Shown here: positions 16,890 to 24,000 of the stretch, piece after piece | How positions within the stretch are numbered: position 1 is the stretch's first letter | Layout of the letters: each line of letters begins with the position of its first letter | NCBI GenBank assembly: GCA_026168805.1 | Contig: JAPFDS010000047.1 | Span: 11,241-35,240 of the forward strand | DNA: 24,000 nucleotides | Direction of reading: 5' to 3' | Source of the DNA: Bacillales bacterium | GTDB taxonomy: Bacteria; Bacillota; Bacilli; Bacillales; Amphibacillaceae | The notes under the pieces: generated by a model | Database searches by the model: none | What the model was told of the DNA's origin: nothing | The model's input: only the letters and a program-made list of their open reading frames with translations | Program-made: the position numbers and the translations under genes

Positions 16890-17015
16890 AAGTTATTCCC
16901 TCCATCAAATAATTCATTTGCCGCTGAACCCGTACCGTGGATGCCTGATTGATGTTCATTGGGAAATTTTGCTGAATGTATGTTCCACCATTCATGCTCC
17001 CCTCCCATCATGACT

Positions 17016-17405
17016 TTATTTCTCCCGTTCAAAATAACAGTTATGATTTTCAGATATTCCAGCTCCGAGCAGTACTAAATTATCTTCATTTTCAATAACT
17101 ACCTTTAAAAAGTCGATTTCACCATTGGGATTATAAAAGCTAATTTCCATTCCATCATCGGACTCCCTTAAGCGATATCTAAAATCTTTATCTCTATCTT
17201 CCACATAAACTGTTTCTTCATCTTTAAATTCTATACCTTCATCGAATGGAGGGCATAGTGCCACACCAGTTGCTTCTCCATCATTATAACCTGATTTAGG
17301 TACCCATTTCCCGCCAATCAGCTGATCTTCAGTTATCACTTTACTACAACCACTCATCATAATTATTACTATCATAAGCAACAAAAAGTTACGACCAACA
17401 TTCAC
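17016..17405 (-). CDS. Small lipocalin-like lipoprotein, paralog 1 of 3
   Basis: GTG start. Signal peptide with lipobox MMSGC. The mature part begins LIGGKWVP, has two conserved Cys, and carries the conserved SDDGMEI and NCYFEREK. Confidence 0.85.
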   Translation of the reverse strand: MNVGRNFLLLMIVIIMMSGCSKVITEDQLIGGKWVPKSGYNDGEATGVALCPPFDEGIEFKDEETVYVEDRDKDFRYRLRESDDGMEISFYNPNGEIDFLKVVIENEDNLVLLGAGISENHNCYFEREK

Positions 17406-17728
17406 ATCTTAGCATTCCATTCTTCTCCATGTAGTCTATTTAATAAATTCAATCAAGAACCTTTCATTCTACTTCTTTAATTATTTTCATCAATGTTTTA
17501 ACATTTTATCCTAGGGCTTCATTACAAACGTAGTTTGATGCATCTTTTCCGTACTCTATCTAAATTTCTGGTGCTAGCGCTTGCGGGTCTTCTGTGAACA
17601 TATTTTGTAGCCAACTTCTAAACAATAAAATATTTTCATCACCTTTTAAAATAATTGCTGTACCATAATTTATTCGCTTACCAAGGCTATAATTAGTCAT
17701 TTCTAGTAATGTCAACGTACCGATTATG

Positions 17729-18244
17729 TTAATTCAGTGCAGCCTCTAACACCTTTTTTTCGTGTTCTGACATACTACATATTACAATGCCACAAACTAT
17801 ATTATTTGCATCTAAAATAAAAACTAATTTATTATTTTGAATCATTGATTTTGGTTTCTTATTTGAAAACAAAATGAGTACTTTGTCATTACCTATATAG
17901 ACATCCAACATACCAGGTTCATCTATATAAGTTTCACCGCTATATTGTTTAATCTGACATTTAGGTAAACCTTTATTCATTGGTACATTCTCCATATCAA
18001 AGTTTAAATATTTCAGTTCCTGTACCTTTTCAATCAAAGTTAGTGTAATAGAACGCAGATCGCCTGTATCTTTACCTATTCCTATTTCAATTAACGACTT
18101 TGTAAAATTACCAGTTCTCCAATATATAGTTGATTCTTTTGATATATTCCAAGTACCGAATTCTACAGTCACCGGTGTATAGATATCATATTCAATATGT
18201 ACTGGTTGAATTTCTTTATACTCTACTACTTTTAACATAATCAC
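17729..18244 (-). CDS. Hypothetical protein (171 aa), putative immunity-type
   Basis: ATG follows AAAAGGAG. No family was recognised. A short ORF tail ends within its SD region. Confidence 0.7.
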   Translation of the reverse strand: MIMLKVVEYKEIQPVHIEYDIYTPVTVEFGTWNISKESTIYWRTGNFTKSLIEIGIGKDTGDLRSITLTLIEKVQELKYLNFDMENVPMNKGLPKCQIKQYSGETYIDEPGMLDVYIGNDKVLILFSNKKPKSMIQNNKLVFILDANNIVCGIVICSMSEHEKKVLEAALN

Positions 18245-18422
18245 GACTCCTTTTAAGGAAGGGTTTCATCAAGCATTTGATCTGCTTTTGGTACGCCTTT
18301 CTTTGAAGCATCTGTATCTCACTTATCGACTATCCCGTAAACCCGCCCTAGAGGGAAACTCATGAAAATTAACTAAAGAGGGCTATCCATCCCAACAAAA
18401 CTATGTTTTCGAACTGCAACTA

Positions 18423-18710
18423 TCAATTCACATCCATTACATGTATTTCTTTAGCCTGGGCATAGGCATTAATCTCTCTGATCAAATTGTTTCTATAAAC
18501 TGATATTGCTCCGTGTATTTCTCTTTCATCATCTGCATCTATATATTCGGGAAATAAGATGAAATTTGTTTGATCCATTTTTTTAATTATATATTCATTT
18601 CCTTCAAATTCTCCACTTCTAATATGATATGAAGTTATAAATGACATTATATCTTCATATAATTCCTGTGTGTTAATCTCAGCCCGCAAAAACCCTTCTA
18701 AAACATTCAT
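18423..18710 (-). CDS. Hypothetical small acidic protein (95 aa)
   Basis: ATG follows AAAGGTGAG. No family was recognised. Confidence 0.65.
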   Translation of the reverse strand: MNVLEGFLRAEINTQELYEDIMSFITSYHIRSGEFEGNEYIIKKMDQTNFILFPEYIDADDEREIHGAISVYRNNLIREINAYAQAKEIHVMDVN

Positions 18711-18807
18711 AATAATAATCTCACCTTTCTATTTTGGTTGAGCTGACAACATCCTGCAGAACTTAATTTTCAATAATATTATTAAATTCATGTTGACCAT
18801 TTTGAAG

Positions 18808-19149
18808 CTATTCTTTATACATTTCCCTTTCCCATACTCTCTTTCCGTCGATTAAAAATACTGAACTTGGTGGATCATCATAAAGAGAAATTTCAACCAA
18901 TGAACTTTCTTCTTGTTTCAACCAATTATATACACTACCTTCGTTAGTAGAAGGATGTGATAAAACATTATTTACTTGAAATGCAGTTGCATAGTATTCT
19001 GCATATCCGGTATCATCCTTATCTAAACCATTGTCTGTCTCAAAAAATGTGTCTGTTTTTCCTACAATTCTTAATCCACTGTTCCACTCTACTATGATCT
19101 CTACACCTTCATACTCTATTAATGTTTCAAATAAAGAATCTGCTTCCAT
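18808..19149 (-). CDS. Hypothetical small acidic protein (113 aa)
   Basis: ATG follows AAGAGGA. No family was recognised. Confidence 0.65.
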
Positions 19150-19292
19150 AGATATCCTCTTTCTTATTTTATTATAATGGTTTTGCTGCTACTATATGAT
19201 TACCATATGATCCATAATGTATCATTCCTCTATTGGTCTCTATATAGAGGGCAGTTCAATAACCAATCAAAATATGATGTTTATTATGTTCT

Positions 19293-19733
19293 TTAATCGG
19301 CTAGTAATTCCAAGTAATATTGATCATTTTGTTCTATTTTTCTTAAAAATTCTTCAAGTGATCTTGCAATCTTAATATCATAATAGTAAACTGGGCTATG
19401 ATCATTTTCATTCAATTCGATTGACATTAAAGCTGATTCACTACCCTCAAAAAATATTAATTTATTATCTTCAAATTCATCATAGATTTCTATATCTGGA
19501 TAAAACTCAAAATCGTTCACTCTTAAACGAAAATCTCTTACGGAGTAAGGGTCCATAATACGATTAATATTATGTTCTGAACCCTTTATAAATCCGTAAC
19601 CAACCTTTGTATAAAAAACGACTAATTCCCTAGGTAACTTTAAGTCGAGATCCCTCTCAACCTCATTGATTTCCTTTTCAGCCACTGGATAGAAAACATT
19701 TTCTTTATTTTCATTAATACGTTCATAGGACAT
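19293..19733 (-). CDS. SMI1/KNR4 (SUKH) family immunity protein, intact
   Basis: ATG follows GGAGG. It encodes LKLPRELVVFYTKVGYGFI...NKLIFFEGSESALMSIEL...SLEEFLRKI, the typical SUKH layout. Confidence 0.85.
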   Translation of the reverse strand: MSYERINENKENVFYPVAEKEINEVERDLDLKLPRELVVFYTKVGYGFIKGSEHNINRIMDPYSVRDFRLRVNDFEFYPDIEIYDEFEDNKLIFFEGSESALMSIELNENDHSPVYYYDIKIARSLEEFLRKIEQNDQYYLELLAD

Positions 19734-19768
19734 TATTATTTACCTCCAAATTATTTTTCTTGCATATT

Positions 19769-20024
19769 TTACTTGATTGATGAAACTTCCATTACTTCTG
19801 AAAAGTTACTGAAAGCTTCTTGCCGAGCTTCCTCTAGTTCTTCTTTCAGCTTAGCGATTATCAAGGATCATATTTGCATCATTCAGAAATGAAAGTGACT
19901 GTAACATACTAGATGATTCGGTTGTAATAAGTCCTTCTCCAGTTTGTGATTGTGCTTCAGTCATAAGTGTTTCTACTTGGTAAAGCATTTCCTCCGTGCT
20001 CTTATTGATTTCCCTTAATGTCAT
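19769..20024 (-). pseudogene. Frameshifted ~85-codon helical ORF remnant (possible T7SS/LXG accessory or toxin N-terminal piece)
   Basis: MTLREINKSTEEMLYQVETLMTEAQSQTGEGLITTESSSMLQSLSFLNDANMILDNR* continues in another frame as IIAKLKEELEEARQEAFSNFSEVMEVSSIK*. It ends 35 nt before the SUKH start. Confidence 0.35.
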
Positions 20025-20087
20025 TTATCATAGAACCAACAGAGCACCAACCATAATTATATGATTGGTGTTTTTTATCGTTACTCG

Positions 20088-20216
20088 TTTGTATGTCACT
20101 TGTGAAGGAAAGTCACAAGTAATCCCTCTTAAGTAGCCCTCTTTCTTTCAGTGTCTACGTTAGTGTGATCATATCAAAGTGATTCCTGAATCCTTTTTCG
20201 CTTTTATTAAGCTGGA
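20088..20216. repeat. Copy B of the ~130-bp repeated intergenic element (partner at 13968-14098)
   Basis: It aligns by eye to copy A. It contains a perfect 8-bp hairpin ACTTGTGA-N7-TCACAAGT (20098-20120). Confidence 0.7.
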
Positions 20217-20238
20217 TTTGTTTTAGCCTTTGGTAATT

Positions 20239-20499
20239 TTATTTTTCACGTTCGAAATAACAGTTAAAATTTTTAGAAACTCCAGTTCCAAACCCAATCA
20301 GAGCTAATTTATCTTTATTTTCAATAATGATTTCATAAATGTCTATATCACCGCTTGGATTATAAAATGTAATTTCCATTCCATCATCCGATTCTCTTAA
20401 TTGATATCTAAAATTCTTGTTCCTATTTTCCACATAAACCGTTTCCTCATCTTTAAATTCTATACCTTCGTTTAAATATGGACATTGTGGTTCACCAGT
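20239..20499 (-). pseudogene. C-terminal part of lipocalin-like lipoprotein paralog 2, split by IS21
   Basis: It encodes ...TGEPQCPYLNEGIEFKDEETVYVENRNKNFRYQLRESDDGMEITFYNP...NCYFEREK*. The first 20 or so codons of the ORF-track ORF (20500-20568) are IS sequence. Confidence 0.85.
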
Positions 20500-20672
20500 T
20501 GAGTATTGCATCTGATATGTACCAACCTTGCGGTTCTTTGTACCAGTGATTGCGGAGAAGTTTACCACACTTTGCGGAACAATTTACCAATACGAATAAA
20601 ACCTCTTGTATACTAAATGAGCATGCCGATGATTTATCGGTGTGACTCTATGTATACAGGAGGTTTTTTAGT

Positions 20673-22223
20673 ATGTATCCATATCGGAAGATTTTGGAGT
20701 TGCATGCAGAAAGTGTTTCGTTGCGAAGTATCGCTATGATTACACAACATTCTCGTCAGAAAATCACAGAGATCGTTGGACTGGCGGAAAAGAAGGGAGT
20801 GAAAATACCACTTGAAGAGGAAATGACGGATCCTTGGTTAGAGGATTTTCTTTATCCAGAGAAAAAACAAGAAGCAAGCGGAAGACACTTGATGGATTTT
20901 GAATATATTCATCAAGAATTAGCCAAGCCGAACATAACTTTAACACTATTACACGATGAATACGTAAGGGAGGCACATAATACTCAGAAAATACCTTATG
21001 CTTATCGGACGTTCGCAGAACATTATCGTGATTATGCCATGAAGTATAAAGCAACCATGCGTATTCGAAGAAAGCCTGGAGAAATACTAGAAGTGGATTG
21101 GGCTGGAACAACATTATCAATCATAGACTCAGATACTGGAGAAAAGAGAAAGGTGTATGTTTTTATCGCTACACTGCCATGTTCCCAATTGTTTTATGTA
21201 GAAGGTTCTTATCGAATGGACCTTCCATCGTGGATTCGATTACATCAACATACATTTGAATATATTGGTGGAATCCCTCAAATTCTTGTTCCAGATAACT
21301 TGAAAACAGGTGTCACCAAACATACATCAAAGGAGCTCATTTTAAATAAAGTATATGCAGAAATGGCAACACACTATCAAACAATCGTTATGCCTGCACG
21401 TGTTCGTTCACCTCGTGACAAGGCGAGTGTTGAAAGTTCTGTTAATATCGTTACAACTTGGATTATTCAAGCCCTAAGAAACACTACCTGTTTTTCATTG
21501 GAAGAACTAAATAAAGAAATATGGAGTAAGTTAGAATTGTTAAATCATCGACCATTTCAAAATAGACCAGGTTCACGATGGTCGGCATTTTTGGAAGAGG
21601 AGAAATTTGCCCTTTCCCCACTTCCAAATTCACCATATAAATTATCTGAATGGCGCAAAGAAAAAGTCCGACCTGATTATCATATTACCATTAATAGTAT
21701 GTTTTATTCTGTCCCATATGAATTAATAGGAAAAGAAGTTGAGATAAAGGTTTCTCCTCACATAATTGAAGTGTATTTCAATCATATGAGAGTTGCATCT
21801 CACCAAACATTATATGGTCAATTTGGTCAATTCTCTACTCTAAAAGATCATATGCCGGATAACCATCGGTTATATATTGAACAAACACCGGAAGAAGCAA
21901 TCAAGTGGGGTTCCGAATTGGGGCCATCCGTTTTAGATGTGGTAACTTTTATTCTGGAACAATATGAAGTTGAAAAGCAAGCGCTAAACGCTATTTTTAC
22001 GCTGAAAAAGCTAGAAAGAAAATATTCATCATATGAAATAGAACAGGCATGTAAATTAGTGCTTCAAGCTACTAATAGACCGACTGTTAAAAGCGTACAA
22101 ACAATGATTAAAACATTACATCAAGAAGATGAACGCAAAGCTTCTACACGTGACTCAAAGTCAATAGATAAAAAGTACGGCTTCACGCGTGGCGCATCTT
22201 ATTTTGGAGGGAAATCAAAATGA
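20673..22223 (+). CDS. istA: IS21-family transposase IstA
   Basis: 516 aa. ATG follows AGGAGG. N-terminal HTH, DDE core (EVDWAG..., VPDNLKTGV...), and typical IS21 operon order. Confidence 0.92.
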   Translation: MYPYRKILELHAESVSLRSIAMITQHSRQKITEIVGLAEKKGVKIPLEEEMTDPWLEDFLYPEKKQEASGRHLMDFEYIHQELAKPNITLTLLHDEYVREAHNTQKIPYAYRTFAEHYRDYAMKYKATMRIRRKPGEILEVDWAGTTLSIIDSDTGEKRKVYVFIATLPCSQLFYVEGSYRMDLPSWIRLHQHTFEYIGGIPQILVPDNLKTGVTKHTSKELILNKVYAEMATHYQTIVMPARVRSPRDKASVESSVNIVTTWIIQALRNTTCFSLEELNKEIWSKLELLNHRPFQNRPGSRWSAFLEEEKFALSPLPNSPYKLSEWRKEKVRPDYHITINSMFYSVPYELIGKEVEIKVSPHIIEVYFNHMRVASHQTLYGQFGQFSTLKDHMPDNHRLYIEQTPEEAIKWGSELGPSVLDVVTFILEQYEVEKQALNAIFTLKKLERKYSSYEIEQACKLVLQATNRPTVKSVQTMIKTLHQEDERKASTRDSKSIDKKYGFTRGASYFGGKSK

Positions 22224-22975
22224 ATCAACAAAATTATGATAAAATGAAAGCACTTAATTTAACTGGAATGGCTGAATCTTATGAAACATTATTTGCGAAT
22301 CCTTCTTTTCAGGAAATGGACTTTGATGACCTACTAGGTCTTCTATTAGATCACGAAGAAAGTGTTCGTAAAACCAATAAGTTAAATCGTCTTTTAAAAC
22401 AAGCAACATTTCCTGAGGAAGCAGCAATTGAAGAGATTATTTACGATACAGACCGTAAACTAAATAAAGATTTATTAATGAAGCTCTCTACAGGAAATTA
22501 TATAATAGAAGGAAGAGATATTGTGTTCAAAGGAGTATCTGGTGCAGGTAAAACATGGTTAGCGATTGCATATGGTGTGCAGGCTTGTCGTCAGTTTTAC
22601 AAAGTGAAATATGTTCGGTTACCAGATCTTTTAGAAGAGTTTAAAGTAGCAACATATCAAGCTGATGGTAGTTATACAAAACTAATGAAAAAGCTCATTA
22701 AGGTTGATCTTTTAATCATTGATGAGTGGCTGTTATTTGAGCTTTCAAAAGAGGAAGCAACTTTACTATTGGAAATTATTAATTCACGCTATACGGCTAA
22801 GAAATCAAACATTTTTTGTTCTCAATTTGACATACAAGGTTGGTATGAAAAACTTGGAGATGGAACACTAGCGGAGGCTATACTAGATCGGATTATCCAT
22901 AATTCATATGACATATTTATTGATGGGGCCGTATCTATGCGCGAAAAACTAGGAATTAATGCAGTGAAAATATAG
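22220..22975 (+). CDS. istB: IS21-family helper ATPase IstB
   Basis: 251 aa. Walker A GVSGAGKT and Walker B LLIIDEW. Its start overlaps the istA stop in ATGA. Confidence 0.92.
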   Translation: MNQQNYDKMKALNLTGMAESYETLFANPSFQEMDFDDLLGLLLDHEESVRKTNKLNRLLKQATFPEEAAIEEIIYDTDRKLNKDLLMKLSTGNYIIEGRDIVFKGVSGAGKTWLAIAYGVQACRQFYKVKYVRLPDLLEEFKVATYQADGSYTKLMKKLIKVDLLIIDEWLLFELSKEEATLLLEIINSRYTAKKSNIFCSQFDIQGWYEKLGDGTLAEAILDRIIHNSYDIFIDGAVSMREKLGINAVKI

Positions 22976-23009
22976 AATTTAAGCAAACAGTATCATAAAT
23001 ACAAAACAA

Positions 23010-23047
23010 AGCATGGATAGATATAAGTATCTATTCATGCTTTTTTC
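23010..23047 (+). terminator. Rho-independent terminator inside the IS21 right arm
   Basis: Stem AGCATGGATAGATA pairs with TATCTATTCATGCT (13 of 14 bp). T6 follows at 23041-23046. Confidence 0.8.
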
Positions 23048-23144
23048 ACACAAGTGGTAAACCAGTCCGCAAGGACTGGTACATTTGTCCGCAATGTGTG
23101 GTAAAAAGAATCGCAAGCCTGGTAAGGATCATCCGCAATACTCA

Positions 23145-23284
23145 CCAGTTGCTTCTCCATCTTTATAACCTGACTTTGGTACCCACTTACCCCCTATTAA
23201 ATCGTCCGTTGTTACCAATTCATTACATCCTGCCAAGATAATTAATAATGTACTAATTATGAAAAATAAACTATGTTTTCTCAT
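23145..23284 (-). pseudogene. N-terminal part of lipocalin-like lipoprotein paralog 2, split by IS21
   Basis: ATG at 23284 follows GAGGGAG. It encodes MRKHSLFFIISTLLIILAGC (lipobox) NELVTTDDLIGGKWVPKSGYKDGEATG. Joining it to 20499 after removing one CCAGT copy restores a 131-codon gene. Confidence 0.85.
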
Positions 23285-23506
23285 GTGATATCACTCCCTC
23301 AATAAATTAAAGTTATCTCCTTAAATATCCGGACAGACGAAACTACATGTTCCATTAATGTAGCTGATTTTGGTAACTTCGGAATATGCAGTTAGATAAC
23401 GATTATCCAAAATTTCTCCTTACTACAGGAGAGAGAATCTGAGATGTTTCCAACCACTGTATTAATCACAAGTATCCAGTTGGTTTCATCCTAAAATATC
23501 ATGACT

Positions 23507-23896
23507 TTATTTCTTCCGCTCAAAATAACAATTTAACCTTTTGATTATCCCTGAACCATTTAAACCAAATGCATCTTCACTTTCCATAGTAATCTCAAAA
23601 AAATTAACTTGTCCACTTGGGTTAAAAAATATTATTTCCATTCCATCATCTGACTCAGTGAGTTTATAGTCAAATTCTTTTTCTTCATCAATCACATACA
23701 CTTTTTCGTTATCAATAAATTCCATACCTTCATCAAAAGCAGGGCATAATGGCTCTCCGCCGATTTCTCCATCCTCATACCCATTTGTAACAAGCCACTT
23801 ACCCCCAATAATTTGATCTTCAGTTATCACGTTACTACAAGCTCCCATAACTATTATTACTATCATAATCATTAAAAGGCTTCTGCCAAGTTTCAC
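23507..23896 (-). CDS. Small lipocalin-like lipoprotein, paralog 3 of 3
   Basis: GTG start. Lipobox VMGAC. The mature part begins IIGGKWL, with the two conserved Cys, SDDGMEI and NCYFERKK. Confidence 0.85.
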   Translation of the reverse strand: MKLGRSLLMIMIVIIVMGACSNVITEDQIIGGKWLVTNGYEDGEIGGEPLCPAFDEGMEFIDNEKVYVIDEEKEFDYKLTESDDGMEIIFFNPSGQVNFFEITMESEDAFGLNGSGIIKRLNCYFERKK

Positions 23897-24000
23897 ATCT
23901 CAACACCCTTTCACTCTCACCCGCAGTCTACTTACCAATATATTCGAAGACGTCTTCTATTGTATTTATAAGTTATCAATTTCTTCTTGAAATATGTCTA

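Follow-up and report, generated by a model that had tools for sequence, protein, structure and literature searches.

What is the function of three related genes for small lipoproteins that lie among immunity genes in a Bacillales genome? The genes, which we call P1, P2 and P3, are found in a 24,000-nucleotide stretch of contig JAPFDS010000047.1 (assembly GCA_026168805.1, positions 11,241 to 35,240), referred to here at its full length as the window. A preliminary description of the window had proposed that they belong to an extracytoplasmic immunity family. This proposal is supported by the lipoprotein signal of the family, by the adjacency of its members to genes for LXG toxins of type VII secretion systems (T7SS), by co-divergence with these toxins, by toxin relics inside the window and by the immunity genes in the neighborhood. 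As far as sequence comparison can tell, it is likely that the family consists of lipid-anchored extracytoplasmic immunity proteins, which probably neutralize one family of LXG toxins. The family is new and unnamed, within the known kind of extracytoplasmic immunity to T7SS LXG toxins. The three genes, and the insertion sequence (IS) that interrupts one of them, were located from open reading frames (ORFs) and their translations:

17016-17405, minus strand: P1, intact, 129 aa, GTG start, lipobox MSGC with Cys20
23507-23896, minus strand: P3, intact, 129 aa, GTG start, lipobox MGAC with Cys20
23145-23284, minus strand: 5′ part of P2, with signal peptide and lipobox LAGC, running to ...GEATG; its final 6 nt are one copy of a target duplication
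20239-20494, minus strand: 3′ part of P2, completing a frame of 131 aa when joined to 23284-23145
20501-23144, plus strand: IS21-family element disrupting P2, with istA at 20673-22223 and istB at 22220-22975

Both the ORF listing and direct reading place the three paralogous genes where they had been described, on the minus strand. The similarity among them is far beyond chance, with pairwise identities of 58-63% and 55 invariant columns. A hidden Markov model (HMM) of the family scores P1 at 177 bits, P3 at 171 bits, and the 5′ and 3′ parts of P2 at 60 and 106 bits, respectively. The motifs (L/I)IGGKW, C51-P52, NCYFE and ESDDGMEI are found in all three copies, and the previously reported lipoboxes (SGC, GAC and AGC), xIGGKW start of the mature domain and two conserved Cys residues (in CP and NCYFE) are all present. 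Of two cores reported as invariant, SDDGMEI is indeed so, whereas DEG(I/M)EF is not, as P2 reads NEGIEF.

The splitting of P2 by an IS21-type element, also reported before, is evident, but the join then given (23284-23145 to 20499-20239) yields 401 nt, is out of frame and is five bases off; the correct 3′ part is 20494-20239. Removal of the element together with one copy of the 6-bp duplication restores an open frame of 396 nt, encoding 131 aa. The duplication, AACTGG on the minus strand, flanks the element at 20495-20500 and 23145-23150. The element is assigned to the IS21 family on its two-gene organization and on the repeat structure of its termini, which are imperfect inverted repeats of 97 nt (73% identity) with reiterated sub-repeats of ~20 nt. 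P3 and P2 are adjacent, in agreement with their described tandem placement, and are separated by a spacer of 222 nt. A terminator-like hairpin, TCTCCTGTAGTAAGGAGA, with a T-rich tail is located between them (23415-23432, minus strand), and P3 and P2 may be transcribed separately. A scan for promoters and terminators gave no useful signal: shuffled sequence contained more promoter-like sites than the real one.

The number of synonymous substitutions per site (dS) between the window copies ranges from 0.85 to >2, and the ratio of nonsynonymous to synonymous substitutions (dN/dS) from 0.17 to 0.30. The window copies are old, and a recent local duplication as the origin of P1-P3 is ruled out by these dS values. 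P1 and P3, both intact, are subject to purifying selection; P2 has been inactivated by IS21. The public gene call for P1 is a 113-aa protein starting at Met17, without the signal peptide, and P3 with its GTG start is absent from the database record by an exact-sequence look-up. The amino acids of the signal peptide are conserved in homologues, some of them with an ATG start, which supports the GTG starts of P1 and P3. The lipoprotein nature of the family is hidden by automated annotation. Annotators gain a name for 'hypothetical' genes that are sometimes truncated by automated callers, with the signal peptide lost.

Pfam and NCBIfam scans of the three window proteins identified no family, the lone match being a chance one to spiralin. 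A word-indexed search of 5.8 billion proteins retrieved 35 relatives, all of them at least 50% identical and all annotated as 'hypothetical', and an exhaustive search through 1.84 billion cluster representatives with a HMMER profile retrieved only 59 at E <= 1e-3 and 41 at E <= 1e-10. Three profile matches were left out of the family, namely P0090 and P0092 (about 2900-3300 aa) and P0080 (946 aa), which is repetitive and Asp/Glu-rich and was judged a compositional match. The full-length members retrieved are 123-135 aa long and have in common the lipobox, W34, F60, Y77 and the two Cys. Counting one genome per GTDB species, members occur in Pseudogracilibacillus (3 genomes), Oceanobacillus (2), Candidatus Avamphibacillus and unclassified Bacillota metagenome-assembled genomes (MAGs). 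It is a rare family, restricted to a few genera of Bacillales, namely Pseudogracilibacillus, Oceanobacillus and their relatives. Its lack of a link to any described immunity family, as noted in the preliminary description, was borne out by searches of Pfam, NCBIfam, the PDB and the literature; the literature search found no paper with both 'lipocalin-like' and 'LXG'.

We then asked where the homologues are located. All fetched loci were mapped with HMMs built from the lipoprotein family and from the N-terminal, middle and C-terminal parts of the toxin. A position of homologues directly downstream of toxin genes, the arrangement expected of immunity genes in the preliminary description, was found at 12 distinct loci (L001, L003, L004/5, L006, L009, L010, L012-L015, L020 and L022), all with one type of LXG tip. 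A conserved metabolic operon, named there as the contrary case, was found at none of the homologue loci. At every locus with enough upstream sequence, the member starts just after the same toxin C-terminal domain of ~200 aa, here called the tip (mapped with the toxin C-terminal HMM at L001/2, L003/8, L004, L005, L006, L009, L010, L012, L013, L014 and L015). The adjacent toxins can be intact, frameshifted or orphan; they are co-oriented with the member gene and all share this one domain (HMM E = 1e-29 to 1e-123), and the intact ones all contain the Pfam LXG domain. Tandem arrays of 3-8 lipoprotein copies are frequent. The loci are organized as follows:

L001 (118-kb MAG contig): DUF5344-like small helical protein, 584-aa LXG toxin, then 8 tandem members within 4 kb
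L003 (Pseudogracilibacillus sp. SO30301A): Lap-like gene, 605-aa LXG toxin and 6 members; orphan 214-aa tip and 3 members; Lap-like gene, second 605-aa LXG toxin and 3 members
L005: minimal triplet (helper, 584-aa LXG toxin, a single member)
L004: pseudogenized version of L005
L006, L009, L013 (Oceanobacillus) and L015 (Ca. Avamphibacillus): intact LXG toxin with members directly after it
L004, L010, L012 and L014: frameshifted or orphan toxin tip, then a member
L020/21: three small helical genes, a 500-aa toxin carrying the same tip (E = 1e-29), then a distant member (~30% identity)
L022: distant members (~30% identity), with a toxin-tip end (E = 1e-9) followed by two tandem members

The toxin tips and their first-downstream lipoproteins have diverged together, with a correlation of r = 0.96 between the two identity matrices (n = 11, Mantel p about 0.001). 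Pairing of toxin and lipoprotein clades is also seen inside a single lineage. The window copies represent three different specificity clades. P3 falls in the 'GGTWLVTNGYEDGEIGG' clade, which follows toxins of ~600-620 aa, and shares 68-72% identity with the lipoproteins that come first after the toxin in L003, L006 and L009. P2 is nearest to the 'MRK…' clade (68%), which follows the 584-aa toxin of L001, and P1 belongs to a third clade, its DNA being 88% identical to the sixth array gene of L001. The arrays also contain displaced pieces of toxin. The orphan tip of L003 (6281-6925, 214 aa) is 76% identical to the resident toxin tips, and a short toxin-tip relic is found in L001 (10586-10747) before the seventh member. 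Such orphan tips inside lipoprotein arrays are the classic signature of tip-displacement recombination. It was also observed that L001 (1995-4829) encodes a 944-aa PhageMin_Tail (tape-measure-like) protein, which follows a small HTH_Tnp_1_2 protein and comes immediately before the Lap-like/LXG operon; this toxin locus may lie beside or inside a prophage remnant.

Remains of the same toxins are found inside the window, next to the two intact genes:

17443-17568, minus strand: decayed 3′ end of a cognate-type LXG toxin gene, last ~44 codons, stop-interrupted, directly upstream of P1
23897-23950, minus strand: toxin-end/spacer junction upstream of P3, from the alignment with L003 2850-3500

The former is recognized as a decayed toxin 3′ end because it aligns to both the toxin end of L003 and the toxin C-terminus of L006. 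Window positions 17009-17568 share 72% identity (blastn, E = 3e-78) with L003 2872-3436, which takes in the final 140 nt of the toxin gene together with the spacer and the first immunity gene. The relic itself shares 45% identity over 44 aa with the L006 toxin C-terminus (tblastn, E = 1e-3) and has in-frame stops. The translation of 17568-17443 is EI*IEYGKDASNYVCNEALG*NVKTL..MKIIKEVE*KVLD*IY, and the matching end of the L006 toxin is EIKAEYGKDATDYLRDEILEINDKNTDDEELIKELEKKELERIF. Upstream of P3, CGAATATATTGGTAAGTAG (23946-23928, minus strand) matches the point where the ~600-620-aa toxins end in '...RIFGK stop', and the spacer has been conserved as well. The same junction is kept in a metagenome contig, L017, which is 94% identical to window 23790-24000 over 211 nt. 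P2 retains only ~18 nt of conserved leader. The flank similarity between P1 and P3 had been taken as a sign that whole cassettes were duplicated. The similarity is real, but it is no evidence of local cassette duplication, since the flanks are toxin-gene relics, with the motif AGTCTA(T/C)TT being the toxin stop-codon region, and dS is as high as given above. Given the toxin 3′ relics upstream of both genes, P1 and P3 are therefore orphan 'toxin-end plus immunity' cassettes, of the kind made by tip-displacement recombination.

The lipoprotein signal ascribed to the three proteins extends to the whole family. The G+LPP lipoprotein pattern matches 32 of the 34 members, including P1, P2 and P3, and the other two are N-terminally truncated gene calls. 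Pfam LPAM_1 matches 6 of the 34, and 33 of the 34 have exactly two Cys in the mature part. P1, P2 and P3 also satisfy a PROSITE-like lipobox rule, with Cys at position 20, and each of them is predicted to carry a type II (lipoprotein) signal peptide. The AlphaFold model of a family member, based on a 26-sequence alignment (pLDDT 75.8, pTM 0.69), consists of a short helix followed by eight beta strands. The mature domain of ~110 aa is thus predicted to be all-beta, with eight strands and two conserved cysteines.

The label 'lipocalin-like', used in the preliminary description, is weakly supported. In favor of it, the best Foldseek matches in the PDB (TM-score 0.40-0.53) are 4mve, the Bacteroides 'lipocalin-like' structures 4gzv, 3hty and 4qrl, fatty-acid-binding proteins and de novo barrels, and the top match in a viral library is a 'lipocalin-like domain' protein (E = 2.2e-3). 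Pfam Lipocalin_4 (PF13648) has sub-threshold matches in 6 of the 34 members (best E = 1.8e-4), all of them distant members and none a window copy. Bacterial lipocalin-like domains of this kind (Lipocalin_4; 4gzv, 3hty and 4qrl) are small, eight-stranded and antiparallel, as is predicted for the family here, and are often found on lipoproteins, but they have no known link to toxins. No match is above threshold: Foldseek against the PDB gave nothing below E = 1e-3 (best E = 3.5e-3), and the lipoprotein profile against the PDB gave only chance-level matches (E at least 0.48). A 'lipocalin-like small barrel' is a reasonable description of the predicted domain, not an established one.

These observations suggest how the proteins might work. 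Processing by Lgt and Lsp would leave the protein tethered to the outer leaflet of the membrane, and the two conserved cysteines may form a disulfide. The tethered lipoprotein would bind the incoming toxin domain 1:1 and keep it from reaching a target in the membrane or wall zone, in the way that TelC is blocked by TipC and TslA by TilA. In the close clade, the most variable positions are spaced alternately along strands (76/78/80 and 87/89) or grouped at 117-121; they could make up one exposed face that serves as the specificity surface. The window copies would then be orphan immunity cassettes kept in a poly-immunity island, where they probably protect against toxins from neighboring strains.

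The strict adjacency to toxin genes would also fit if the lipoprotein were an accessory of the toxin, such as a chaperone or release factor working outside the cytoplasm, or a receptor on the producer's side for wall crossing, and the minimal locus L005 offers no candidate for a cytoplasmic immunity protein. Such a role seems improbable, however, in view of the tandem arrays of 3-8 diversified copies per toxin, the orphan modules of toxin tip plus lipoprotein, and the toxin-less orphan copies within a poly-immunity island, all of which are hallmarks of immunity. There are, moreover, separate candidates for LXG helpers (Lap and DUF5344-type) at these loci, and the known helpers of these types are small, cytoplasmic, helical and encoded upstream. 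It is very unlikely, too, that the proteins are lipocalin-like lipoproteins binding a lipid, an isoprenoid or a nutrient, which either hitchhike with toxin cassettes or shield a small-molecule target of the toxin. The weak likeness to lipocalin-like barrels (Foldseek, viral library and sub-threshold Lipocalin_4) is what speaks for ligand binding, but the fold assignment is itself weak (E of at least 2e-3), and there would be no need for arrays of diversified paralogues if the ligand were conserved; both the co-divergence with toxin tips and the clade-specific pairing point to protein-protein specificity. For the window copies, one could further imagine that they are non-functional recombination debris with no present role, given that P2 is disrupted by IS21, the toxin relics beside P1 and P3 are decayed, and both insertion sequences and broken SUKH genes (truncated or frameshifted) abound in the island. 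This we regard as the least probable alternative, because P1 and P3 keep full frames, signal peptides, lipoboxes and every family-invariant residue, because of the low dN/dS, and because L017, a second sample, preserves the P3 junction.

Several points nevertheless weigh against an immunity function directed at LXG toxins outside the membrane. The lipoprotein call is made from pattern rules only, and part of the co-divergence between toxin tips and lipoproteins reflects shared genome phylogeny. HMM mapping with toxin profiles found no intact toxin anywhere in the 24-kb window. Among the other loci, L011 has a truncated member relic among housekeeping genes, and the 1.4-kb contig L018/19, with the most distant member examined (P0085), gave no toxin-tip match upstream; in L007 and L016 the member is at a contig edge, and all of these exceptions were counted as uninformative. 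Finally, the toxin tip has no recognizable fold or motif, and only the place where the immunity protein is found speaks for an extracytoplasmic target.

No relative of the toxin C-terminal domain was found in Pfam, in the PDB or among named proteins. PDB sequence searches with the LXG toxin and with the toxin-tip profile returned chance-level matches only, and no TelC. Across genera, the tip keeps Y, G, Y, F, three Glu, Gln, Pro, Thr, Arg-Trp, Phe-Pro, Trp-Tyr and Gly unchanged. Neither His nor Asp is invariant in the cross-genus alignment, and no glycine zipper or hydrophobic helix is conserved, by eye, between the Pseudogracilibacillus and Oceanobacillus toxins. The tip therefore looks unlike TelC/Lipocone, colicin M and the TspA/TelE/EsxX class. 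TelC is a lipid II phosphatase and TslA a lipase, and TspA, TelE and EsxX are pore-formers. An AlphaFold model of the tip P0098 (11-sequence alignment) had a pLDDT of 44 and was unusable. We raise, tentatively, the possibility of an undescribed T7SS toxin-immunity pair, in which a relative-less LXG tip of ~200 aa, with an extracytoplasmic target and a mechanism unlike those of TelC, TslA, TspA, TelE and EsxX, would be neutralized by a lipid-anchored lipocalin-like barrel, perhaps through capture of a toxin segment in the calyx.

To our knowledge, extracytoplasmic immunities to T7SS toxins are few (TipC, TilA, TsaI and ExiCD), and each of them pointed to a toxin acting on the envelope. The family described here likewise marks an uncharacterized LXG tip as probably acting outside the membrane. 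As the family is rare, its wider impact hinges on whether the toxin mechanism is new. The functional analogue is TipC, the immunity protein to the LXG lipid II phosphatase TelC of Streptococcus intermedius, where several diverged paralogues follow telC and the first alone neutralizes the cognate toxin (PMC6193138). Like the family here, TipC comes directly after an LXG toxin, is membrane-tethered with its inhibitory domain in the wall zone, and is found in heterogeneous immunity arrays (PMC6193138). It differs in being anchored by an N-terminal transmembrane helix, whereas the family here has a lipobox, and in its size and fold, ~200 aa in a crescent alpha/beta structure (3 helices and 7 strands) as opposed to a predicted all-beta mature domain of ~110 aa (PMC6193138). 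TelC-type domains have a His/Asp active site, unlike the toxin tip here with no invariant His or Asp. Similarity to TipC or TipC2 was found neither by the lipoprotein profile against the PDB nor among the top 50 Foldseek matches listed.

A second parallel is TilA (DUF576/Lpl 'tandem lipoproteins'), which confers immunity to the T7SS lipase TslA in Staphylococcus aureus (PMC10730906). It resembles the family here in being a lipoprotein immunity against a T7SS toxin, in variable tandem arrays and in immunity islands, and TslA also acts outside the membrane (PMC10730906). TslA has a reverse domain order with the immunity gene upstream, whereas the toxins here have the canonical N-terminal LXG domain and the immunity gene downstream (PMC10730906). 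The two families are unrelated: none of the 34 members matches Pfam DUF576 at E <= 1. Proteins with DUF576 have roughly double the length of those described here. More generally, toxins of the Lipocone and lipid-head-group kind are paired with transmembrane or lipoprotein immunities with BamE-like, OB-fold and beta-sandwich folds (PMC12419801). The logic is shared, in that a small secreted or lipid-anchored beta-rich domain intercepts the toxin outside the membrane (PMC12419801). None of the folds in that survey is an eight-stranded lipocalin-like barrel, however, and the Lipocone active site is made of His and Asp, which are not among the invariant residues of the tip here (PMC12419801).

The genes around P1-P3 form a poly-immunity island, in which the following immunity-type genes were identified:

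19293-19733, minus strand: SUKH/SMI1-KNR4 gene
16578-16889, minus strand: SUKH gene, cut off after profile position ~67
13454-13768, minus strand: truncated SUKH gene, next to an IS4-like transposase
11085-11604, minus strand: frameshifted SUKH gene, two ORFs corresponding to the N-terminal and C-terminal halves of the profile
15194-15577, minus strand: CdiI_3 gene
10440-10967, minus strand: DUF2247 gene
10191-10382, minus strand: DUF7674 gene, weak match
23967-24000, minus strand: 3′ end of a SUKH/SMI1-KNR4 gene upstream of P3, with an exact 33-mer match to L017

The gene upstream of P3 had been suspected, from its last 10 codons, to encode a toxin. This was ruled out by L017, in which the matching ORF encodes a 141-aa SUKH_5 immunity protein (E = 5e-21), with further immunity-like genes upstream of it.

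The island is eroding as well as accreting. An IS4/IS1182-like DDE transposase (11979-13457, minus strand) appears to split a SUKH gene within the region 11637-13768, with 13454-13768 as its 5′ part; the ORF at 11637-11852 has no Pfam match and resembles the 3′ part of this split gene. An IS30-like transposase (HTH_38 plus rve integrase core) is located at 14136-15107, between the CdiI_3 gene and the truncated SUKH gene, and represents a third IS family in the 14-kb island. We further noticed four co-oriented ORFs of 95-219 aa without any Pfam match (15665-16324, 17729-18244, 18423-18710 and 18808-19149), which may be further unnamed immunity families.

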